A stretch of 64,000 bases of DNA, from contig CAYMXN010000002.1 of NCBI GenBank assembly GCA_964394435.1, forward strand, positions 78,196 to 142,195. Reading direction: 5' to 3'. Both the position numbers and the translations under genes were made by a program. The notes beneath the pieces are model-generated. The model saw only the letters and a list, made by a program, of their open reading frames with translations. It did no database searches and was not told the origin of the DNA. This stretch comes from an uncultured Candidatus Saccharibacteria bacterium. Lineage in GTDB: Bacteria; Patescibacteriota; Minisyncoccia; UBA6257; 1-14-0-10-44-23. Positions 5-23,645 of the stretch are shown one piece after another; the stretch's first letter is position 1; the number at the start of each line of letters is the position of its first letter.

Positions 5-265
5 ATGGAAGATGTGGGAGAGACGGGGCCCGACCACCGACCCCCGCCCCGCAAAGCGTATAGTCGAGTGATCAGTATTCTCGGTGGCCTCTCGGCTGAC
101 CTGGAATCCTTCCTACAAATCGTCACTGACAAGGATGTGCAGGCGATGGTAAGGTATCGCCCAGAGGAAGATCGCCAGAAACTCATGGCTGCCATTGCTG
201 CCGCCCGCGAGAATCTAGATACTCTCGAAACGGCTATCAAAAAGGCATTGGGTCCCCACCGTTAG
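5..265 (+). CDS. Hypothetical protein encoded in a GC-rich segment. The N-terminus may lie upstream of the window start.
   Basis: The 86-aa ORF lies in a high-GC patch at 1-312 that contrasts with the roughly 45% GC of flanking DNA. It is followed by a strong intrinsic terminator. No recognisable domain. Confidence 0.35.
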   Translation: MEDVGETGPDHRPPPRKAYSRVISILGGLSADLESFLQIVTDKDVQAMVRYRPEEDRQKLMAAIAAARENLDTLETAIKKALGPHR

Positions 266-1146: not shown

Positions 1147-1959
1147 TTATTTCAGAAATCCTTCATTTTCTAGATCTCGAAGCGCTTTTTTGATTTGAGC
1201 AGCAGATTTGTTATATTTCCTCGCGAATACTTTTTCATCCAAAGGCTCACCTTTTAAAAATGCACGGATCAGTGCACCACGCAACTGCCGATTCGAACCA
1301 GAAAACTTCGCCTGCTTATTATAATGAGCACTCTTGCGATTTGGATTTTCAACCTTGCTCGTTAGGTGCGAGCCATAATCCATAAGCGCGTAGTACCACT
1401 CGCGGATATTTTCCTTCGGTAATGTTTTTTCAACTAACTCTAAAATCTGTTCATCGTGCACATTCTTTTTATCAGCAAAAAAGTGGTGAATAAAAACTCG
1501 GCGGATGTTAGTCTCAATAAAGATACTCGGCAGGTTAAAGGCGAACGCGCGAATCGAGCCGGCGGTGTTTGGGCCTATGCCCGGCAAGGCGTCTAAATCC
1601 CTCATATCCCTTGGTAATTGGCCCTTATAGAGGTGCATCACCTCTTGGGCGAGCTTACGGAGGTTGAGCGCCCGGCGGTTATACCCCATGCCCTGCCAAA
1701 CCTTCAAAAGCTCTGTCGTATCAGCCTTCGCGAGCGCTTCAAAATTTGGAAATGCTTTAATAAATTCAGGGAGTTTTTTCTCAACGCGACTTACCTGTGT
1801 TTGCTGGAGCATCACTTCTGAAACGACGATAATATATGGGTCGAGCGCTCCATCTTTGTGCGGCTTTAATACTGGAGGCCTCCACGAGAGCTGCCTGCCC
1901 TGTTTGTGATAATAATCCCAAATATACCCCTTAAACCTCTTCAGCTTCAGCGAGGTCAT
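1147..1959 (-). CDS. HhH-GPD superfamily DNA glycosylase (MutY/Nth family, adenine glycosylase-like).
   Basis: HhH-GPD motif LPGIGPNTAGSI followed by a Gly/Pro-rich loop and Asp. There is no C-terminal 4Cys FeS cluster loop. It overlaps the downstream NUDIX gene by 29 nt, suggesting an operon. Confidence 0.6.
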   Translation of the reverse strand: MTSLKLKRFKGYIWDYYHKQGRQLSWRPPVLKPHKDGALDPYIIVVSEVMLQQTQVSRVEKKLPEFIKAFPNFEALAKADTTELLKVWQGMGYNRRALNLRKLAQEVMHLYKGQLPRDMRDLDALPGIGPNTAGSIRAFAFNLPSIFIETNIRRVFIHHFFADKKNVHDEQILELVEKTLPKENIREWYYALMDYGSHLTSKVENPNRKSAHYNKQAKFSGSNRQLRGALIRAFLKGEPLDEKVFARKYNKSAAQIKKALRDLENEGFLK

Positions 1960-2401
1960 AACTCAATATCGTCTTGTAGTCCTTAAATCGAAATGTTCCT
2001 TTAAATTTTTTGCCAGCGAGTAAAAGTGGCATCCAGAACTTGTCGTCAGCCCACATATCGGCAAATGGGATATCTTTATGATTAAACCACTGTGGACGCA
2101 TCTCTTCAGTTTCGATCGCATTGCCAGTAAAACCTGGAACAGCAAATACATGCGTCTGCCATGTCTCACCGACTTCTTCGTAGATGAAGGTAAATACTCC
2201 TCGTTTTTCTAAATTATTAAGCTTAATCCCCGACTCTTCCTCGAGCTCGCGTAGTGCGCCCTGCTCCGGCGTCTCACCATCGGCAAGCTTGCCACCATAC
2301 CCGTTCCACTTGCCCGTCGCAAACCCGCGCTTTTTCATTCCTAATAAAATCTGCTGGTCGTTATACAAGAGCACTAATGTAGTTGGTTTTTTCTGAATCA
2401 T
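1931..2401 (-). CDS. NUDIX hydrolase, MutT/MTH1-like 8-oxo-dGTP diphosphatase.
   Basis: Nudix box GGKLADGETPEQGALRELEEESGI. The C-terminal DMWADDKFWMPLLL resembles the MTH1/NUDT1 substrate-recognition region. Confidence 0.65.
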   Translation of the reverse strand: MIQKKPTTLVLLYNDQQILLGMKKRGFATGKWNGYGGKLADGETPEQGALRELEEESGIKLNNLEKRGVFTFIYEEVGETWQTHVFAVPGFTGNAIETEEMRPQWFNHKDIPFADMWADDKFWMPLLLAGKKFKGTFRFKDYKTILSYDLAEAEEV

Positions 2402-4552: not shown

Positions 4553-4590
4553 AAGACACCCAGCAAACGCTGGGTGTTTTGATTATTATT
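4553..4590. terminator. Intrinsic terminator, likely bidirectional.
   Basis: Hairpin acacccagcaaacgctgggtgt followed by tttgattattatttt. Confidence 0.55.
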
Positions 4591-5323
4591 TTACTTGAGC
4601 GAGTGGTCCGTTTGGGTTCACGAATTCTCTGATTTGGTCGAGCCGAAATACTACTTTCTGCTGACCGGCCGCATATGCGGCTACGCGATTTGGATTAAAT
4701 ACTACTACGAAACTACCTGGGGTGATGAGAAACACCTGATAGTTATCTGGTTGTGGCGAGGCGCCTTCTTTAATCCAGCGCGCGCCTACTCCTGTTCCTA
4801 ATTTAGTCTTTAGGCTCTCGGTAGCTATCGCGCTTAGCTTCTTTAAGTAATTCTCGCCAATAAATAAATCACTTAGCTGAATATGCTTCTTTCCAATCAA
4901 GTCATAATTAATACTTATCTCATAATTAGTCGGCTTACTCTCGGCGGCGAGCTGACTCGAGATTAAAAACTCGATACTCGCAACTTTAGTGGTTATAAGT
5001 GGCACGCCATACCGAATCGTAAGCGTACTAAATCGCTCCGAACTTGAAGTGTAGTCTTTTAGCGCACGCTCCCTAAACTCTGCGACTGTCTTTGTAATTA
5101 ATTCGGCGATCTCATTGTTTAGGCTTGTTTCTGCGGCTTCGTCCTTAAAACCAGAAAACTGTGGATACTCCGCATTAATGGTGTAGTGATCTTTAATTGA
5201 GCGATCAATTGTCCGATACTTTTCGTATCCAGGCATCGCAGTTCGGTCGGCGATAAGATAGATAAATATGCCGGCGATGATAACAGGAAGAAGATAGAGT
5301 AGTTTGCGCATATAGAAAATCAT
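4586..5323 (-). CDS. Membrane-anchored DUF3298/DUF4163-like (RsiV-like) protein.
   Basis: An N-terminal TM (LLYLLPVIIAGIFIYLIA) followed by a soluble domain. The longer ORF to 5380 abuts ileS, so an internal Met (MIFY/MRKLL) is the likely start. Confidence 0.45.
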   Translation of the reverse strand: MIFYMRKLLYLLPVIIAGIFIYLIADRTAMPGYEKYRTIDRSIKDHYTINAEYPQFSGFKDEAAETSLNNEIAELITKTVAEFRERALKDYTSSSERFSTLTIRYGVPLITTKVASIEFLISSQLAAESKPTNYEISINYDLIGKKHIQLSDLFIGENYLKKLSAIATESLKTKLGTGVGARWIKEGASPQPDNYQVFLITPGSFVVVFNPNRVAAYAAGQQKVVFRLDQIREFVNPNGPLAQVK

Positions 5324-5382
5324 ATCATACCTCACATAATCAACGCGCCCGGCTCGATATCGAGCCGGGCGCGCTTTCATTT

Positions 5383-8300
5383 CTATATTTTCCTTAGACC
5401 AATCCAGATCGGAGCATCGTCGAGCTTGCTCTCAAGCTGAATATCAAACTTTTCTGATTTCTTCATCTCGAGCTGCCCCGCACCCACCGCTTTCTTAAGT
5501 TGGATGGAGTTGCGCTGAACAACATCAAACAGTTTATCAGCGGCCTCAATCATCAGTACAATCTCGTCGCCAACCTGATACCCGGCGTCTTGGCGCAATC
5601 CCTGAATCGTACGTACAAGCTCACGTACCATACCCTCTTCTTTGAGTTCGGCGGTAAGCTCGGTGTCGAGGATAATCCCCTTGCCTTCAGGAAGCTGCTC
5701 GGCAAACAAAATCTTTTTGACGTTAATTTCGTCTTTGAGAATCGCCATCAGCTCATCATCGGCGTACTCTTCAAATGCACCCTTTTTAATCGTTGCGGAA
5801 GCGAGTGGCTGGCGAACCTTAAGCTTGAGTTCAGCACGCAGAGCGAGAGCTTCAGCGGCCAACGCGCGCACCTTCGCCATTTTTTGTGGCAGTAGCTTAT
5901 CCTCCTCATCACCCTCTTCGGCAAACGTCGGCCAGTCAGCGAGGTGGACTGATTTCTGTGCGCCACCTACCGACTGATACAACGCGTCGGAGAAAAACGG
6001 CATAAATGGAGCGAGCAAACGACTGATTGTTTCGAGTGCGAGACGCAACGTATGCGAAGCTGCCTCGTGGTCTTGCTCCTCGTCAGTGCTTCCCGATTGG
6101 AAACGATCGCGACTTCGACGGATATACCAGCGCGAGAGATCGTCAGCAAACGCTTCGATTAAACGGCCAGCCTCGCCAATCTGATACGCATCGAGCTTAG
6201 TCGTCACCTCTTTAGTGAGTGTGCTTAGCGAAGCGAGAATCCAACGGTCGAGTACGTGCTTAATCTTCGGCTCACCCTTACGCGCACTCTCATGTTTTCC
6301 ATAACTATTCCAAAATACAAATGAGTTGTAGATGATGAGAATAAACTTGCGCGTGATTTTAGCTAGATCGTCTTCAGTAAAGCGCTTTGAATCACCTGGG
6401 TCGTTGATCGTATAGAAGTACCAGCGCAGCACGTCGGCTCCGTACTTTTTCATAATCATCATCGGATCGACGATGTTCCCCTTACTCTTGCTCATCTTGA
6501 TACCGTTTTTATCGAGCACTAGACCAAGACAGATGACATTTTTATACGCTGGTTCAAGACCGAGTGCGGTCGACATTGCCAAGAGTGTATAGAACCAACC
6601 GCGCGTCTGATCAACTGCTTCGGCGATATAATCGGCCGGATAGTCGAGTTGCTTAAATAACTGCTTCGCCTCTTCGGAAGTTGGTCGCTTGCCGTCTTTA
6701 GTGAGTGCGTACGGGAAGTTTACTGATGCGTATGGCATCGCTCCAGACTCGAGCCAGACGTCGAGCACCTCTTTAATACGCTGCATCGGTTTTTTACAAG
6801 ATGGACATGCGATATGCACCTCGTCGACAAACGGACGGTGTAAATCAAGCGCACCCTCTCTGTTTACCGGCCAGTTGTTAACCGTAAGTTCTTTGTGATG
6901 ATCATGCGCTGGATAGTAATCAGAAGCGAGTGCCTCTTCATTAGTCATTCCCCGTAAGCTTGCATCGAGCAGCCAGAGTGGGTCACCATGACCAACGATG
7001 ACAATACGCTTATTGCTGTATTTTTTATTAACGTCATTAAAGAAGTCCATCATGCGCTTGCGCACTTCAGTGAGCGTCTCCGCCTTTCCCTTTGGACGCA
7101 CCGTAAAACGCTCCAACTTGTTATTGAAGAACGCGTGATACGCTGGAACCATCGCCCGGTTGTACTCACCTACCTGAATCTCACCAATACGCTTATCAAT
7201 AATCACCTTTGCCTTAGTCGCTTTTGCGATGATTTTTGCGGTCTCTTTCGTGCGAGCGTACGGCGAACAGATAATAAGATCTATTTTTTCTTTCTTGAGC
7301 TTGCCAGCAATATTTTCCGCCTGTCTGACTCCCTTTTCGGTAAGGTGCGAAGCGTTTTTGGCTGTCTCGACTCCGGAAGCTATCCAGTTTTCAACGTTAT
7401 GCTGCGCCTCGGCGTGACGCACTGCAAAGAAACGATTATGACTGACTGCGCGGTCGTTAAGCTCCTGTCGTCCGCTGATTACGATATGCTTTTCGCAATC
7501 TGCGCACTCCCAAATTGGAATTGGCGCACCCCAGTAGCGATTGCGCGAGATAGACCAGTCTTTCAAATCTTTTAGCCACTCACCAAAACGCCCCTCCTTA
7601 ATATTTGCCGGAGTCCAGTTAATCTTTTGGTTGTTCTTGAGCATCTGGTCGCGCAACTTGCTCATCTCAATAAACCAGGAGCTGCGAACCATATACACAA
7701 GCGCACTATTACAGCGCCAGCAGTGTGGATACTCGTGCTCGATCTCGCCCTGCTGATATAACAACCCACGCTTAATCAAATCGGCAACAACGTCGCTATC
7801 CGCTTGCTTGATATACTTTCCAGCGCCTGGATACCCCTTGCCCATCTTGCCCTGATCATCAATGGTCATTGGTAGCCCCTCTTTGATACCCATCAACTTA
7901 AAGTCTTCTTCTCCAAATGATGGAGCGATGTGTACGATACCCGAACCGTCTTCGGTCGAAACGAAATCACCCGCACGGACTTTGTATAGGTCGGCGAGTT
8001 TCAGCTTTGGATGTTTGGCCTTGAGCGGATAGAGCGGGACGTATTTTTTGCCAACGAGTTTTTTTCCAATAACCGCTTCGAGCTCTTTAACCTCATACCC
8101 TTCACGCGCAGCTGGCGTATTGTACGCGTACAAGTACTCGATTGTTCCCGTATCGACTTTCTTTACCTCAAACTTTTTGTACGTCAGCCTTGGGTTAATC
8201 GCCAATGCTAAGTTACCCGGAAGTGTCCACGGTGTCGTAGTCCAGGCCAAGAAGTAGGTTTTTGGTTTTTTCTTCGATGTTCCAGCCTCTTTAAGCTCAA

Positions 8301-8934
8301 ACTTTACGAACAACGATGGGTCTTTAGTTGGGCGATACGCTCCCGGCTGACCAAGCTCGTGGCTACTAAGCGGAGTCTGGCATCGCGTACACCATGGAAC
8401 GGTGCGAAGCATCTTCTTAAGCAATCCGGTTTTATTTATCTCTGATAAGAGCCACCAGATACTTTCGATGTAACGGTTTTCGTAGGTTACATACGGGTTC
8501 TTCATATCAAGCCAAAAACCCATACGCTCGGTGCTCGCCTCAAACTCACTGCGATAGCGCCACACAAGCTCCTTACACTTTGCGTTAAACTCGGCGATAC
8601 CGTACTTTTCAATTTCACTCTTATTTTTCATTCCGAGCTCCTTTTCAGTCTGGAGCTCGACCGGCAAACCGTGCGTGTCCCAGCCGGCTTTACGTGGAAC
8701 GTTAAAGCCACGCATCGTTTTGTAGCGCGGAATGACATCCTTAAAGGCACGCGCCTCGATGTGGTGAATACCCGGCATACCGTTGGCGGTTGGTGGGCCT
8801 TCGAAGAATACAAACTTCTTCCCTCCAGCGGAGTTTTTCTTTAGTGATTGTTCGAAAATTTGATTCTGCTTCCAAAAGGCTAATATCTGATCCTCTAACT
8901 CTGGCAATGAGAAATTTTTAAGATTTTTTAACAT
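5383..8934 (-). CDS. ileS: Isoleucyl-tRNA synthetase with an embedded histidine-phosphatase (PGM/SixA-like) domain.
   Basis: Class I HIGH variant PPTANGMPGIHH and KMSKSKGN. A CP1 editing region is present. The IleS-type zinc knuckle reads WECADCEK...ACPSCKK, followed by DLHRPFVDEV...VLDVWLESG. About 190 aa between the two CxxC pairs carry the RHAEAQHN, SPYARTKETA and IVGHG motifs of the histidine phosphatase superfamily. Confidence 0.85.
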   Translation of the reverse strand: MLKNLKNFSLPELEDQILAFWKQNQIFEQSLKKNSAGGKKFVFFEGPPTANGMPGIHHIEARAFKDVIPRYKTMRGFNVPRKAGWDTHGLPVELQTEKELGMKNKSEIEKYGIAEFNAKCKELVWRYRSEFEASTERMGFWLDMKNPYVTYENRYIESIWWLLSEINKTGLLKKMLRTVPWCTRCQTPLSSHELGQPGAYRPTKDPSLFVKFELKEAGTSKKKPKTYFLAWTTTPWTLPGNLALAINPRLTYKKFEVKKVDTGTIEYLYAYNTPAAREGYEVKELEAVIGKKLVGKKYVPLYPLKAKHPKLKLADLYKVRAGDFVSTEDGSGIVHIAPSFGEEDFKLMGIKEGLPMTIDDQGKMGKGYPGAGKYIKQADSDVVADLIKRGLLYQQGEIEHEYPHCWRCNSALVYMVRSSWFIEMSKLRDQMLKNNQKINWTPANIKEGRFGEWLKDLKDWSISRNRYWGAPIPIWECADCEKHIVISGRQELNDRAVSHNRFFAVRHAEAQHNVENWIASGVETAKNASHLTEKGVRQAENIAGKLKKEKIDLIICSPYARTKETAKIIAKATKAKVIIDKRIGEIQVGEYNRAMVPAYHAFFNNKLERFTVRPKGKAETLTEVRKRMMDFFNDVNKKYSNKRIVIVGHGDPLWLLDASLRGMTNEEALASDYYPAHDHHKELTVNNWPVNREGALDLHRPFVDEVHIACPSCKKPMQRIKEVLDVWLESGAMPYASVNFPYALTKDGKRPTSEEAKQLFKQLDYPADYIAEAVDQTRGWFYTLLAMSTALGLEPAYKNVICLGLVLDKNGIKMSKSKGNIVDPMMIMKKYGADVLRWYFYTINDPGDSKRFTEDDLAKITRKFILIIYNSFVFWNSYGKHESARKGEPKIKHVLDRWILASLSTLTKEVTTKLDAYQIGEAGRLIEAFADDLSRWYIRRSRDRFQSGSTDEEQDHEAASHTLRLALETISRLLAPFMPFFSDALYQSVGGAQKSVHLADWPTFAEEGDEEDKLLPQKMAKVRALAAEALALRAELKLKVRQPLASATIKKGAFEEYADDELMAILKDEINVKKILFAEQLPEGKGIILDTELTAELKEEGMVRELVRTIQGLRQDAGYQVGDEIVLMIEAADKLFDVVQRNSIQLKKAVGAGQLEMKKSEKFDIQLESKLDDAPIWIGLRKI

Positions 8935-9132: not shown

Positions 9133-9723
9133 TCACTCTCCGAGAAACGACTCAAGCTTCCTGCGACGAACTGGGTGCTGAAGCCTTCGGACTGCTTCGA
9201 GGCATAGTTGCCTAACCCGCTCTCGGCTTAGACCTATTTCTCGCCCGATTGCCGCATGGGTCATTCCTTCAAGAAAATGCTTGCGAACAATCAAAGCATC
9301 CTTTGGGTTGAGCGTTCCAAGCACCTTCCCGATTAATGCACGAAGCTCCTTCTGCTCGGCTCCTTCACTCGCCGGCCCGGCGGGAAGAGTAGCAAATGCA
9401 GTCGCGCGCCCCAACATCCTCACAGGAATAGCTCGCGTCGCCTCGAAGGTCTTCGGCGTGGTTAGGAACTCTTGCGTGAAGACTTTCTCCGGCCAAAGCT
9501 CGGAAACGCTCTTCCTGGTTAATTCGAAGAGCTTCGCCGCCACCAGCGGACTGACCTCCTTCGGTCTTTTCCGCATATTGACCCACCGCCCGAATGTGAC
9601 ATGATCCACTCCGACGAATTCTGCGCCCTGCTTTTGCGTCCAGCCACGCCTGCGCAACGCCTCCCAGAGGATGCCGTGCTTAAGCTGTGCGCGGATTGCG
9701 ATCGGAAACCTTGATTCGGACAT
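9133..9723 (-). CDS. GC-rich cassette gene encoding a DNA-binding protein with an XRE-like HTH and a sigma-70 region-4-like HTH.
   Basis: The C-terminus THAAIGREIGLSRERVRQLCLEAVRRL matches sigma70 region 4.2. The N-terminal WTQKQGAEFVGVDHVTFGRW is HTH-like. GC content is high against the surrounding DNA. Its own SD is GGAGG with a 5-nt spacing, and a TTGACG-N17-CACAAT promoter lies at about 9745-9775 on the minus strand. Confidence 0.55.
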   Translation of the reverse strand: MSESRFPIAIRAQLKHGILWEALRRRGWTQKQGAEFVGVDHVTFGRWVNMRKRPKEVSPLVAAKLFELTRKSVSELWPEKVFTQEFLTTPKTFEATRAIPVRMLGRATAFATLPAGPASEGAEQKELRALIGKVLGTLNPKDALIVRKHFLEGMTHAAIGREIGLSRERVRQLCLEAVRRLQHPVRRRKLESFLGE

Positions 9724-9814: not shown

Positions 9815-11521
9815 TTAAATTCTCTCAAGAACTTTAATGCCAAGCAGGCTCAATCCTTGTTTCATCGCCTGCGCGACGTTGCTGATTAAAACTAACCGAG
9901 CGTTTTTGCGTAACTCGTTTTCGTCGTTTAACACCCTCACCTGTTCGTAGAACTGGCTCGTTAATTTAGCGAGATCAAACACATACTTTGCTAGGTGGCT
10001 GGTGAAGTTTGTTTCTACACACAGCGCGACTACATCCGGCAGGTCGAGAATCTTTTTAGACAACTCCTGCTCAACTGGTTCGGTGAGTAAACTCAAGTCA
10101 GCCTTTTTAATCTTGCCGGCTTTTTCTAAGATGCTCATCAGCCTGGCGTACGTGTACTGGAGGTATGGGGCGCTATCACCGGCGAAATCGAGCATCTGCT
10201 CCCAGTTGAAGATAATGTCGGACTGCCTGTTTTCTTTGAGGTCGTTGTACTTAAGCGCACCAATACCGACAATTTCGGCGATTTCTTTCTGGCGCTCTGC
10301 GGACAAATTGCTGTTTTTTATTTTTACCCTTTCAATGGCGAGCTCAACGATTTTATCCATCAACTCTTCAAGACGAATCGCCCTGCCCTCACGAGTTGAA
10401 AACTTTTTCCCGTCTTCGCCAAGCACCATTCCGTACTTAATATGCTCGGACTCGGTTTTTATACCCAGGAGCTTATCAATCGCAAATAACTGGCTAAAGT
10501 GGAGTGCTTGGTCGTTGGCTACTACGTGTAAAATCTTGGCTGGTTTGTACTTTTTCTCACGATAAAGTGCGGTCGCGATATCGCGGGTTATATACAGACT
10601 CGCCCCGTCAGACTTTTGTACAAGCGCCGGTGGCAAACCGAACTGATCAAGTGGAACAATAATCGAACTCCCCTCGCCAGGCTTGGCGATAGTTTTCTTG
10701 AGTAACGCTAATACTGCCGGCAAATCACGTTCGAAAAATCCTTCGCCTAAATCAACGTCAAAGTGAATACCGAGGCGCGTAAACAATTTATTAAATGCGA
10801 CCATCGACTCATCCTTAAACCACTGCCAGAGCTTGCGATTCTCTTTGTCCCCCTGCTCGAGCTTACGAAACTCTTCTTGGCCCACATTTTCCAAATCCGG
10901 ACGATGCTTAATCTCGTCGTGGAAGCGCACATAAAGTGCGAGCAGTGTTTCGATCGGGTCGCGCTCAACCGAGGCGCGGTCTCCCCACATCTTGTACGCG
11001 GAAATCAGTTTTCCAAACTGCGTGCCCCAGTCGCCAATCCAGTTCCAGCGAATCACCTTATACCCTGACGCCTGATACATATTTGAAAGCGCCTCGCCGA
11101 TGATCATTGAGCGAAGGTGTCCGACGTGCGCCGGCTTGGCGATATTGAGCGACGCGTACTCGATAATCACCTTTTGCCCATCGCCGATATTTGTAAATGC
11201 GAACCCCTTTTTAAAAATGCGCTCGAGTTGAGTCGCAAGATATCCCTGGCTCAAGGTGAAATTAATAAAGCCCGGAGCGACAGCCTCAATACTGCTAAAC
11301 ATTCCCTTTTTGTCGGCGAGCTTAAGCTGCTGTGCAAACTTAGTTGCGATATCAAGCGGATTACTTTTGAGTTCCTTTGCCAAACGCATCGCAACGTTAG
11401 TCGCGTAGTGGCCGAACTCCTTTGCTTTTGGTACATCAAGAGCGGGCTCAAAGGAGAGCTTGAGTGTGTTCTTAATAAAGTCTTTTACGGCTTGTTGGGT
11501 CATTGCTTCAATTATACGCAA
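9815..11521 (-). CDS. argS: Arginyl-tRNA synthetase.
   Basis: HIGH region HVGHLRSMIIGEALSNM and a KFSTREG (KMSK-like) motif; length 568 aa. Confidence 0.85.
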   Translation of the reverse strand: MRIIEAMTQQAVKDFIKNTLKLSFEPALDVPKAKEFGHYATNVAMRLAKELKSNPLDIATKFAQQLKLADKKGMFSSIEAVAPGFINFTLSQGYLATQLERIFKKGFAFTNIGDGQKVIIEYASLNIAKPAHVGHLRSMIIGEALSNMYQASGYKVIRWNWIGDWGTQFGKLISAYKMWGDRASVERDPIETLLALYVRFHDEIKHRPDLENVGQEEFRKLEQGDKENRKLWQWFKDESMVAFNKLFTRLGIHFDVDLGEGFFERDLPAVLALLKKTIAKPGEGSSIIVPLDQFGLPPALVQKSDGASLYITRDIATALYREKKYKPAKILHVVANDQALHFSQLFAIDKLLGIKTESEHIKYGMVLGEDGKKFSTREGRAIRLEELMDKIVELAIERVKIKNSNLSAERQKEIAEIVGIGALKYNDLKENRQSDIIFNWEQMLDFAGDSAPYLQYTYARLMSILEKAGKIKKADLSLLTEPVEQELSKKILDLPDVVALCVETNFTSHLAKYVFDLAKLTSQFYEQVRVLNDENELRKNARLVLISNVAQAMKQGLSLLGIKVLERI

Positions 11522-11795: not shown

Positions 11796-12248
11796 ATGCT
11801 CAAGAAAATGGAGATATTTGCGGAAAACCGAACAGCTAAATTTGACTATGAGATTATCGACACGTTTGAGGCGGGTATCGCCCTACTCGGCGGCGAGGTC
11901 AAATCTATTCAAAGCGGTAGAGTAAATCTCACCGGCTCGATTATTCGCTTTGAGAAAGGAAAACTCGCACTCTTAAACGCCGATATCCCTGCGTATCAGC
12001 CCAATAACGCCTCGGAGGGTTATGTGCCGACACGTCCACGCTTTTTGCTTTTAAAGAAAAATGAAATCGCAAAAATCGCTGATTATCTCGACCAACGCAC
12101 ATTGACAATACTGCCTATTTCGGTTTATAATAATGGTAATCTCATCAAGCTGAAGATAGCGGTTGGGCGCAAGCGTAAGAAATCAGACAAGCGAGCCGTT
12201 ATAAAGAAGCGAGAGACCTCACGAGAAATCCAGAGGACTCTGAGATAA
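11796..12248 (+). CDS. smpB: SsrA-binding protein.
   Basis: KFDYEIIDTFEAGIALLGGEVKSI is typical of SmpB. The gene lies directly upstream of the tmRNA. Confidence 0.85.
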   Translation: MLKKMEIFAENRTAKFDYEIIDTFEAGIALLGGEVKSIQSGRVNLTGSIIRFEKGKLALLNADIPAYQPNNASEGYVPTRPRFLLLKKNEIAKIADYLDQRTLTILPISVYNNGNLIKLKIAVGRKRKKSDKRAVIKKRETSREIQRTLR

Positions 12249-12254
12249 CACATG

Positions 12255-12580
12255 GGGACGCCAGGCTTTGACGGCGCGTCTTGTGTGTATCATGCAAGCC
12301 GAGCAGAATTAACTCGTAAATCTGATTCAAACTTACTAAACTGCCAACTTTACTCGCGAGAGCAATTTTGCTTTAGCCTACGCCTAGCGTAAGCCATCGG
12401 CCTATCGACATCCCATAGGTAGATCCCGGTGTTATATTGGGAATAAGAATCGCTTAGTTGAACACGCGCGGCGATTACGAAAATCCAGGTGTTCGGAAGA
12501 TCTCACGTTTTGAGACCTAAGCTTGTAGAGTGATACATATGAACGCATCGGACGGGATTTCAATATCCCCGTCTCCACCA
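12255..12580 (+). ncRNA. ssrA: Transfer-messenger RNA (tmRNA).
   Basis: The 5' end GGGGACGCCAGGCUUUGACGG forms a tRNA-like acceptor/D region. The 3' end GGACGGGAUUUCAAUAUCCCCGUCUCCACCA is a T-arm plus acceptor ending in CCA. The internal reading frame ...GCC AAC UUU ACU CGC GAG AGC AAU UUU GCU UUA GCC UAC GCC UAG gives a candidate tag peptide ANFTRESNFALAYA. The gene is adjacent to smpB. Confidence 0.8.
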
Positions 12581-23573: not shown

Positions 23574-23645
23574 TGCTCGCGTGTGGAATCGAACCACAAT
23601 TGCAGGATTCGGAATCCTGCGTCCTATCCATTAAACGACGCGAGC
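23574..23645 (-). tRNA. tRNA-Arg(CCG), without an encoded CCA.
   Basis: Cloverleaf on the minus strand: acceptor GCUCGCG/CGCGAGC, anticodon loop UUCCGAA (anticodon CCG), T-arm UGUGG-UUCGAUU-CCACA, discriminator A. Length 72 nt. Confidence 0.8.

Follow-up and report, generated by a model that had tools for sequence, protein, structure and literature searches.

[quoted passage not shown] Aminoacyl-tRNA synthetases (aaRSs) are among the best-studied enzymes, and, to our knowledge, the extra catalytic domains nested in their Rossmann-fold core come down essentially to the editing domain. The question is raised by the isoleucyl-tRNA synthetase (IleRS) gene of the window, by which we mean the whole 64,000-nt stretch of DNA that was analysed; a sequence-only reading had noticed a histidine-phosphatase (HP) module in its product. 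On balance, we lean towards an explanation in which this module is a nested, active small-molecule phosphatase coupled to IleRS, the fused form of a two-component module.

The ileS gene occupies positions 5383–8934 of the minus strand, stop codon included (all features given below lie on this strand), as one unbroken open frame of 1,183 aa. Its product passes the equivalog cut-off of the ileS model TIGR00392 (849.4 versus 621.4 bits, E = 3.2e-255 for the whole protein) and contains the Pfam families tRNA-synt_1, Anticodon_1, DUF5915 (residues 1086–1181) and His_Phos_1. As a synthetase it is collinear over its whole length with IleRS of T. thermophilus (Tth; 1ILE) and IleRS2 of Priestia megaterium (8C8U–8C9D), with E values of 2.8e-221 and 4.7e-211, and the alignment with 1ILE is unbroken, residues 3–497 corresponding to Tth 3–481 and residues 696–1024 to Tth 488–808. 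The N-terminal part (residues 1–497, 7444–8934) holds the first Rossmann half, the CP1 editing domain, CP2, strand β4 and the first half of the CP3 knuckle; the C-terminal part (residues 694–1183, 5383–6855) holds the second half of the knuckle, the second Rossmann half, KMSKS, the anticodon-binding domain (Anticodon_1) and the type-2 C-terminal domains. The synthetase motifs around the insert had been called intact and are: the class I signature takes the non-canonical form GIHH at residues 55–58 (8761–8772), aligned with Tth HVGH; the KMSKS loop at residues 813–817 (6484–6498) is invariant in homologues; and the CP1 editing residues T232–T234, H335 and D344 are kept, and invariant in 120/120 homologues, within a region (residues 200–404) that aligns with the editing-domain fragments 1WK8 and 1UE0.

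The C terminus has the type-2 organisation, with DUF5915 and without the treble-clef zinc-binding domain, and the best PDB relatives are IleRS2 or eukaryote-like enzymes. With type-2 IleRS the protein shares the CP1 editing domain, KMSKS, the DUF5915 C-terminal domains and the G/AxHH signature of IleRS2, a functional variant tied to mupirocin hyper-resistance (PMC10485003). The product is thus predicted to be the housekeeping type-2 IleRS of a Patescibacteria (CPR) bacterium, with its synthetic, editing and anticodon-binding parts intact. It falls far below the cut-off of 1,900 bits for the acquired mupirocin-resistance enzymes MupA and MupB (NF000257 and NF000258, 735 and 733 bits). The G/AxHH form is present in 106 of 120 close homologues and shows no correlation with the presence of the phosphatase in the same chain, being common in fused and split forms.

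Between the two parts lies the inserted His_Phos_1 domain, residues 498–693 (196 aa, 6856–7443), identified by PF00300, AlphaFold2 and Foldseek. That IleRS is interrupted between two CxxC pairs by a complete histidine-phosphatase module, as the sequence-only reading had it, is agreed on by the motifs, PF00300 and the 1ILE alignment. Of the extent then given, 6865–7443 (residues 498–690, about 190 aa), the start stands; the end lies at about residue 693, making the insert three residues longer. The first pair, C477 and C480 (7495–7506; within WECADCEK, aa 475–482), aligns with Tth 'CqaC' and is conserved in 98/120 and 86/120 homologues, and the second, C710 and C713 (6796–6807; within ACPSCKK, aa 709–715), in 106/120. 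Alignment shows the insert to be missing from 1ILE and 8C8W; in 1ILE and the P. megaterium IleRS2 the two knuckle halves are joined by a loop of only some 6 residues, and in its place the window protein has 196 extra residues that form a separate enzyme domain. The phosphatase occupies a surface loop of the catalytic domain: the small Cys-knuckle after Rossmann strand β4 (CP3 by sequence order) carries it at its tip.

The insert has everything expected of a histidine phosphatase. The profile search gives a strong match of His_Phos_1 (PF00300) to residues 503–669 (E = 1.2e-30, 107.1 bits versus a gathering cut-off of 21.7), and all of the catalytic signatures named beforehand are in place: RHAEAQHN at aa 506–513 (7396–7419), with R506 and the nucleophilic H507; SPYARTKETA at aa 557–566 (7237–7266), with the phosphate-binding R561; and IVGHG at aa 646–650 (6985–6999), with the second catalytic histidine, H649, and overlapping the subfamily signature GHGDPLW. 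Together with E585 (7180–7182), the presumed general acid/base by analogy with the family, R506, H507, R561 and H649 make up the complete catalytic core of PF00300 branch 1. AlphaFold2 folds the insert alone confidently as a phosphatase (pLDDT 93.2, pTM 0.89) and the full-length protein with pLDDT 90.8 and pTM 0.85, the linker blocks scoring above 90. The best Foldseek structures are PspA, PhoE, CobC and also GpgP (TM 0.70–0.78, E about 1e-13 to 1e-14, 1.9e-14 among them), and a profile search against solved structures likewise places PspA, PhoE and CobC nearest (E from 2e-35 to 1e-29); these three relatives all bear a cap subdomain, which the insert fold keeps. An intein or other selfish in-frame insertion is rejected: His_Phos_1 is the sole Pfam family in residues 498–693, with no Hint or homing-endonuclease domain, and the homology of the insert to free-standing phosphatases extends over its whole length. 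No second HP paralogue was found within the window.

Could the insert be an artefact, or a relic? Either a frameshift or an assembly chimera, both envisaged in the sequence-only reading, is ruled out by the single open frame, the even GC content over the insert (0.47–0.49), a full-length homologue that is 94% identical and was assembled independently, and the hundreds of homologues from other assemblies with the same architecture and the same junctions, which agree exactly throughout the site-1 fusions. Among cluster representatives at 50% identity, at least 150 align flank, insert and flank in one stretch. The ortholog survey found His_Phos_1 in all 120 of the best full-length homologues (50–94% identity, Patescibacteria), so that the HP insertion is the standard form of IleRS in a large Patescibacteria clade and no singular oddity. 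Across these 120 sequences R506, H507, R561, E585 and H649 are invariant, as is S557; the CP3 cysteines are less well kept (86–106/120) than the phosphatase active site. In a more diverse set, R506, H507 and H649 are invariant (63/63) and E585 is present in 58/63. Against locus L002, the insert and the IleRS core have dN/dS values of 0.0285 and 0.0274, respectively: the nested phosphatase is under constraint as strong as the synthetase itself. These observations also dispose of the suggestion that the insert is degenerate. A structural module without catalysis, such as a dimerisation module (many histidine phosphatases dimerise), is, even when pooled with the artefacts above, barely credible; the one relative that speaks for it, L001, has IVTYEG in place of IVGHG, and its gene, with two frameshifts, is probably either poorly assembled or pseudogenic. 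Judged by its conserved residues, the putative phosphatase is very probably catalytically active.

The nearest free-standing relatives of the insert, proteins of about 190 aa with the GHGDPLW motif, are encoded directly against an ileS that lacks the insert. We surveyed 80 metagenome loci, of which 6 were uninformative. The remaining 74 comprise 26 fused loci, 39 with HP upstream of ileS (37 with a gap within 300 nt and 2 with a gap of 1–1.4 kb), 6 in which HP and ileS are convergent (L009–L014) and 3 without ileS; HP is therefore linked to ileS at 71 of 74 informative loci. End-to-end HP–IleRS fusions were absent from all 80. On a neighbour-joining IleRS tree the fused and split forms interleave, with mixed clades at 100% bootstrap, indicating that lineages have switched between the two states several times and that the fused form is one state of a conserved two-component module, of which sister lineages keep HP as a separate gene; the identical site-1 junctions, for their part, would also fit a single origin of the fused form. 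The argS–HP–ileS order is found at L005, L007 and L008, and in the window the open reading frame called as argS (9815–11521) is the upstream neighbour of ileS, in keeping with this order elsewhere. More generally, the ileS-adjacent HP lies within a conserved cluster of translation genes, infC, smpB, argS and ileS, and inheritance of the operon as a whole could explain some of the linkage. Not every CPR lineage has the association, which is absent at the Gracilibacteria locus L003, and a more distant tier of 178-aa HPs is unlinked to ileS, with HD/HIT and DHFR genes as neighbours.

Nor is the CP3 knuckle the only point of entry. In other IleRS lineages, HP domains have been inserted at either of two different surface sites or occur as tandem copies, each keeping the RHG motif. 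In some IleRSs, HP is accompanied by a GNAT, NUDIX or P-loop kinase-like module: GNAT and His_Phos_1 occur together in P0169 and P0121, and one variant pairs HP with a P-loop AAA_18/AAA_33 kinase-like module, at a borderline score. The same HP subfamily is fused to or adjoins Sua5/YrdC, another enzyme that converts ATP to an acyl-AMP and PPi, and its members also adjoin HIT, PP-loop and PRTase genes. Alternation between fused and two-gene forms, with acquisition at several sites, combines gene fusion with a conserved neighbourhood, the classic mark in genomes of functional partners, and the phosphatase probably does work together with IleRS, beyond mere co-expression.

What it acts on is less readily read from its relatives. 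The insert resembles Hydrogenobacter thermophilus PspA (4IJ5/4IJ6), Bacillus stearothermophilus PhoE (1H2E/1EBB) and CobC (6NRU, 6E4B) in fold, in the RHG...R...E...H set, in size and in its small cap, but identity is only 20–28%, and the insert alone has GHGDPLW and the nesting in or adjacency to IleRS. It passes no NCBIfam equivalog cut-off, failing as a dPGM (NF038349 dPGM_arch, 91.4 versus 225 bits; TIGR01258, 29.8 versus 81.7), as the phosphoserine phosphatase PspA (NF045917, 78.7 versus 350) and as the alpha-ribazole phosphatase CobC (TIGR03162, 66.7 versus 162.9; NF011580, 55.6 versus 250). These failures bear on one competing account, that a housekeeping phosphatase, PspA-like or broad PhoE-like, hitch-hiked from an argS–ileS operon and was fused in compact CPR genomes, active and mechanistically unrelated to aminoacylation. 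The best solved match, at 28% identity, is indeed the metal-independent phosphoserine phosphatase PspA, the HP gene does belong to a translation-gene cluster, and NUDIX and GNAT, which are neighbouring gene types, are inserted as well, as if IleRS accretes its neighbours. Simple operon fusion, however, predicts end-to-end joins, which number 0 of 80, rather than internal nesting at three sites; moreover, the linkage to ileS, at 71 of 74 informative loci, outlives convergent rearrangement and repeated switching between fused and split states. We consider such hitch-hiking unlikely.

Two further accounts accept a partnership and differ in the substrate. The phosphatase might act on tRNA ends, stripping a terminal 3′-phosphate, a 2′,3′-cyclic-derived phosphate or a pyrophosphate from an IleRS-bound tRNA, whether tRNA(Ile) or another, and so restoring a chargeable CCA, as an end-healing or anti-toxin activity. 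With a median pI of 9.4 when fused and 10.0 when free-standing, the HP modules are strongly basic, and an RNA substrate would fit too; both IleRS and Sua5/YrdC belong to tRNA biology, the variant with the borderline kinase-like module recalls kinase–phosphatase healing enzymes, and in one HP relative the fusion partner is an ASCH domain, whose fold putatively binds RNA or nucleosides. Yet CPR proteomes are basic in general, the IleRS core itself having a pI of 9.0; the nearest relatives are capped small-molecule phosphatases, unlike SixA, Sts and PGAM5, whose open sites serve macromolecules; we know of no histidine phosphatase that acts on RNA ends; and there is no reason why tRNA(Ile) only should need healing. 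Healing of tRNA ends therefore seems distinctly unlikely. The superfamily also includes protein phosphatases (SixA, Sts-1 and PGAM5), and kinase toxins target aaRS active sites, which brings in an enzyme that guards or regulates IleRS by clearing an inhibitory phosphate that a Ser/Thr/His kinase or a HipA-like toxin kinase had set on the synthetase or a partner. Tethering at several surface sites is compatible with such protection in cis, but the conserved neighbourhood contains no kinase, nothing indicates that IleRS is phosphorylated in these organisms, and the retained cap is again of the small-molecule type, as in the closest relatives; this guarding role is very improbable.

The likeliest mechanism for the nested phosphatase, which we put forward tentatively and with a little less than even confidence, is that of a small-molecule phosphomonoesterase working through a phospho-H507 intermediate on a nucleotide-type or phosphoanhydride ligand. 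Tethering to IleRS would keep the phosphomonoesterase at one-to-one stoichiometry and at close range, H507 would take the phosphate, and the candidate ligand would be tied to adenylate chemistry, as one of its products (PPi or AMP, for instance) or as a by-product or mimic that bears a phosphate. The leaning towards a small molecule of nucleotide type comes from the capped solved relatives, from the Sua5/YrdC partnership and the HIT, PP-loop and PRTase neighbours, and from the co-inserted NUDIX, kinase-like and GNAT modules; the earlier suggestion of a nucleotide or a tRNA-linked substrate is plausible. Every aaRS releases PPi and AMP, so these do not alone account for a linkage to IleRS only, and the three different insertion sites argue against a need for precise channelling geometry. 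For PPi in particular, we know of no branch 1 histidine phosphatase that is a pyrophosphatase, and a search of the CPR and HP-superfamily literature gave no support for such a role. It is also possible, though slightly more doubtful than the mechanism just described, that the fused or adjacent phosphatase is a dedicated Patescibacteria partner of IleRS performing a new obligatory step in or around isoleucine charging. That step might free tRNA(Ile) of a blocking phosphate, destroy an inhibitor or by-product that resembles Ile-AMP and is phosphorylated, or clear PPi or AMP locally in place of missing housekeeping enzymes.

The association of IleRS with a phosphatase is real and widespread, and apparently uncharacterised. 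Our literature search found no published account of a link between IleRS and a histidine phosphatase, and, among the papers listed, nothing relevant on aaRS and PGM in CPR, on IleRS and GNAT or on His_Phos_1 and tRNA; two recent papers on IleRS evolution and structure, including PMC10485003, mention neither a phosphatase nor Patescibacteria. That HP is fused or adjacent in hundreds of related bacteria points towards a phosphatase step around isoleucine charging that has yet to be described. If the partnership holds, it gives IleRS a new accessory activity, gives a function to a widespread CPR 'histidine phosphatase family protein' and opens the little-understood biochemistry of uncultivated, reduced bacteria to direct tests. 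If the step is dedicated and obligatory, aminoacylation in a major bacterial radiation would depend on phosphatase chemistry, and IleRS would be a platform that has repeatedly recruited nucleotide-handling enzymes (HP, NUDIX, GNAT and kinase-like). There is also a consequence for annotation: databases now give these proteins no fuller name than 'isoleucine--tRNA ligase' or 'class I tRNA ligase family protein', leaving the phosphatase invisible in metabolic reconstructions.

Among curated families, an IleRS with an extra enzymatic domain has a precedent in NCBIfam NF040702 (ileS_w_GNAT). The window protein is not a member, scoring 285.9 bits versus a cut-off of 1,999 and having no acetyltransferase Pfam match, and no curated model for a phosphatase-bearing IleRS is among its NCBIfam matches. 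Histidine phosphatases joined to a second catalytic domain are likewise known: the mycobacterial RNase H/acid phosphatase (NF005567, PRK07238), whose NF005567 model matches the insert (E = 5.9e-17), and 6-phosphofructo-2-kinase/fructose-2,6-bisphosphatase, whose PFK-2/FBPase-2 chains are matched by profile. Both of these are end-to-end fusions with other partners, whereas the HP of the window is nested in the catalytic domain of an aaRS.

The isoleucyl-tRNA synthetase (IleRS) gene of the window, ileS (5383..8934, − strand), is a single uninterrupted open reading frame of 1183 residues that NCBIfam identifies as isoleucine–tRNA ligase (TIGR00392, 849 bits versus a cut-off of 621) and in which Pfam recognizes tRNA-synt_1, Anticodon_1 and DUF5915, together with His_Phos_1 (residues 503–669, E = 1.2e-30). 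This profile match agrees with a sequence-only reading that had placed a histidine-phosphatase (HP) domain between the two CxxC pairs of the knuckle and that proved right almost to the residue, with every motif it quoted located: WECADCEK (residues 475–482), RHAEAQHN (506–513), SPYARTKETA (557–566), IVGHG (646–650), ACPSCKK (709–715) and KMSKS (813–817). On alignment to T. thermophilus IleRS (1ILE), window residues 3–497 correspond to residues 3–481 and 696–1024 to 488–808, leaving residues 498–693 as a gap (window 6856–7443, − strand); the alignment to P. megaterium IleRS2 breaks there too, so that where the reference enzymes have a loop of about 6 residues between the CxxC pairs, the window protein has about 196. 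Across the insert, base composition stays uniform. The protein has all the testable defining features of IleRS type 2 and of histidine phosphatase superfamily branch 1, and is an intact IleRS2. From sequence order and the CP core/CP1/CP2/CP3 nomenclature (PMC11685878), the insertion site would lie in CP3.

The nested HP is a strongly constrained domain with a predicted fold and the full catalytic set. Across 63 diverse fused proteins (35–49% identity), R506, H507 and H649 never vary, and R561 and E585 are kept in at least 90%; each of the five is present in all 120 of the closest homologues listed. The CP3 cysteines on either side of the insert, putative zinc ligands going by studies of the T. 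thermophilus enzyme, are kept in only 86–106 of these 120. Between the window and its close relative L002, dN/dS is 0.0285 in the insert (196 codons) and 0.0274 in the core (798 codons), figures that are rough yet comparable, since dS is near saturation. AlphaFold2 models the insert alone with a pLDDT of 93.2 and a pTM of 0.89, and is likewise confident for the full-length protein (pLDDT 90.8, pTM 0.85, linker blocks above 90), a model consistent with, without proving, an HP docked on IleRS.

The fused form, which the same reading had treated as unusual, recurs throughout the Patescibacteria matches and is neither an artefact nor a one-off oddity. In L002, a Patescibacteria MAG labelled 'Candidatus Saccharibacteria', ileS has the same insert and shows 84% identity at the DNA level and about 94% at the protein level. 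At least 120 full-length homologues have PF00300, all of the 120 listed from the full-length search (50–94% identity), with source names that include Parcubacteria, Paceibacterota, Harrisonbacteria, Minisyncoccota and 'Patescibacteria group'; the form also occurs in Peregrinibacteria. At E<1e-30, an exhaustive HMMER search with residues 460–740 (the insert with short IleRS flanks) returned 177 cluster representatives (50% identity). Of the 150 listed, almost every one matches flank, insert and flank in one stretch, and about 70 have a length of 1100–1300 residues and match around positions 420–800. Source annotations call the fused proteins no more than 'isoleucine--tRNA ligase' or 'class I tRNA ligase family protein'. 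Such sequences, KKP39778.1 among them, have long been in the public databases, and our literature search found no publication on an IleRS with a phosphatase inside it or as its partner; the recent papers on IleRS evolution and structure that it covered make no mention of one. The architecture is real, widespread and apparently uncharacterised, neither categorically new nor peculiar to the window; it is of more interest than a one-off fusion, exposing a conserved IleRS–phosphatase partnership in Patescibacteria whose chemistry is directly testable. Two of the relatives show local irregularities. The L002 alignment shifts frame at 2–325, close to the contig end, and omits about 26 residues (window 163–190), possibly through an indel or an error in the assembly of that MAG. 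A third fused ileS (L001 6349–8602) has two frameshifts and IVTYEG in place of the catalytic IVGHG, and is either a low-quality, perhaps long-read, assembly or a genuine pseudogene with a decaying phosphatase.

Searching with the insert alone yielded mostly free-standing Patescibacteria proteins of about 190 residues (35–45% identity, signature GHGDPLW). Both such genes that could be placed on long contigs lie directly upstream of an insert-less ileS (957–983 residues) in the order smpB / argS – HP – ileS – recO, and at one locus (L005) the two genes overlap, HP stop codon with ileS start. A metagenome scan with this family gave 487 confirmed relatives, the best 80 of which were classified by tblastn: HP is inserted in ileS at 26 loci, lies 6–289 nt upstream of an insert-less ileS on the same strand at 37 (two with tandem HP genes), lies upstream across a gap of 1–1.4 kb at 2 and is convergent with ileS at 6; 3 informative loci lack ileS and 6 were too short to classify. 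By this tally, the subfamily is physically linked to ileS in 71 of 74 informative loci. Loci of a more distant, 178-residue HP tier showed no ileS linkage, and no HP was found near an insert-less Gracilibacteria ileS; fusion and neighbourhood linkage are specific to ileS. In P0389 (L094 4001–4882), a more distant HP relative, the fusion partner is an ASCH domain, for whose fold binding of RNA or modified nucleosides has been proposed.

The window shares the synteny of the split loci (infC, smpB/tmRNA, argS, ileS), with smpB at 11796–12248 (+) followed directly by the tmRNA gene (12254–12580, +; RF00023, 102 bits), and a tRNA gene at 23574–23645 (−). Between argS and ileS, in the exact slot of the free-standing HP gene of split genomes, is a 196-residue ORF with Sigma70_r4 and HTH matches (9133–9723, −), whose GC content of about 0.56, clearly above the surrounding 0.45–0.50, suggests a later insertion. 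Directly downstream of ileS, where split loci have recO, a window gene (4586–5380, −) encodes a 264-residue protein that combines DUF3298 and PdaC-like domains with a membrane segment predicted at its N terminus. The extended cluster includes a NUDIX hydrolase gene, both in the window (1931–2401, −) and in split-form L007/L008 (393–827).

Junctions are identical in all fusions at the CxxC site: the HP unit starts 21–23 residues past the first CxxC with N-x-[YF]-F-x-[LV]-RHG, runs to a last strand GE[LF]R[KE][IL] and is followed by P.N..G..D[LF]HRP. A neighbour-joining tree built from the IleRS core of 45 taxa (887 columns, 200 bootstraps) interleaves the fused with the split forms, with mixed clades at 100% support, such as L021 (fused) with L009/10/14 (convergent) and L015/L024/L027 (fused) with five upstream-split taxa; this implies at least three switches between the forms, by fusion or fission. 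Among IleRS relatives from the search with residues 460–740, P0155, P0173 and P0169, as also P0162, carry an HP after WFESG(A/S)MPYAS (about window residues 746–766), and P0155, P0173 and P0168 carry one at about 880–890, the CP3 knuckle being short and intact in some of these proteins; P0190 and P0192 have tandem double inserts between the CxxC pairs. Every inspected HP copy in these other IleRS retains the RHG motif. Such repeated and independent recruitment argues for selection favouring phosphatase activity physically tied to IleRS. Relatives from the same search also have an added GNAT domain (P0169, P0121), a NUDIX domain inside the CP1 editing domain (P0163) or, as a borderline match, a P-loop AAA_18/AAA_33 kinase-like module (P0139). 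The IleRS of these bacteria looks like a platform gathering nucleotide-handling domains. NCBIfam has a curated model, ileS_w_GNAT, under whose cut-off the window IleRS falls.

The HP domain is very probably catalytically active, and it probably cooperates with IleRS; a purely structural insert, or an artefact, seems scarcely credible beside catalytic residues invariant in all 120 of the closest homologues listed. What it acts on can be proposed more tentatively. Foldseek and profile searches agree on the nearest relatives, H. thermophilus phosphoserine phosphatase PspA (28% identity), B. stearothermophilus PhoE and CobC, all small, capped, small-molecule phosphomonoesterases; relatives of this kind, among them the nucleotide-type CobC, make us lean towards a small molecule, and a protein phosphatase appears very unlikely. 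The insert passed none of the NCBIfam functional equivalog cut-offs (dPGM_arch, 91 versus 225; PspA, 79 versus 350; CobC, 67 versus 163). Besides IleRS, just one partner was found: Sua5/YrdC (TsaC-type), fused to the same HP subfamily in P0034 (L089 977–2140) and adjacent in L084 (4041–5943). In L084 the next gene downstream of HP encodes MGMT-DNA-binding + Sua5/YrdC and is followed by one of the HIT family; on the upstream side are genes for a PRTase and for the PP-loop subunit of GMP synthase. Sua5/YrdC, like IleRS, converts ATP and an amino acid to acyl-AMP and PPi, and this shared partner inclines us towards adenylate chemistry; the neighbours in L084 and the NUDIX and kinase-like domains co-inserted elsewhere point to a nucleotide-type ligand. 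The likeliest of the mechanisms considered, if short of an even chance, is a small-molecule phosphomonoesterase that would form a phospho-H507 intermediate, its ligand being of nucleotide type or a phosphoanhydride and linked to adenylate chemistry.

PPi and AMP are common to all aminoacyl-tRNA synthetases, a reason for caution about an adenylate-product substrate; branch-1 histidine phosphatases are not known to act as pyrophosphatases, and a literature search on such a role added nothing. The three insertion sites argue against a strict channelling geometry. The HP modules are basic (pI 9.4–10.0), as might also be expected for an RNA substrate, and a phosphatase acting on tRNA ends, set against the small-molecule relatives, strikes us as rather improbable. 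That the domain is an unrelated metabolic phosphatase hitch-hiking with ileS, a locus to which its fusion and linkage are specific, we consider unlikely. The class-I signature of the window IleRS is the non-canonical G/AxHH (GIHH, residues 55–58; window 8761–8772, −) and not HxGH, a swap that by experiment raises the mupirocin Ki of IleRS2 up to 1000-fold (PMC10485003). The window IleRS falls under the cut-offs of the MupA/B families. Of the 120 closest homologues listed, 106 have G/AxHH, and the motif is common among fused and split relatives alike, with no correlation with the phosphatase arrangement.
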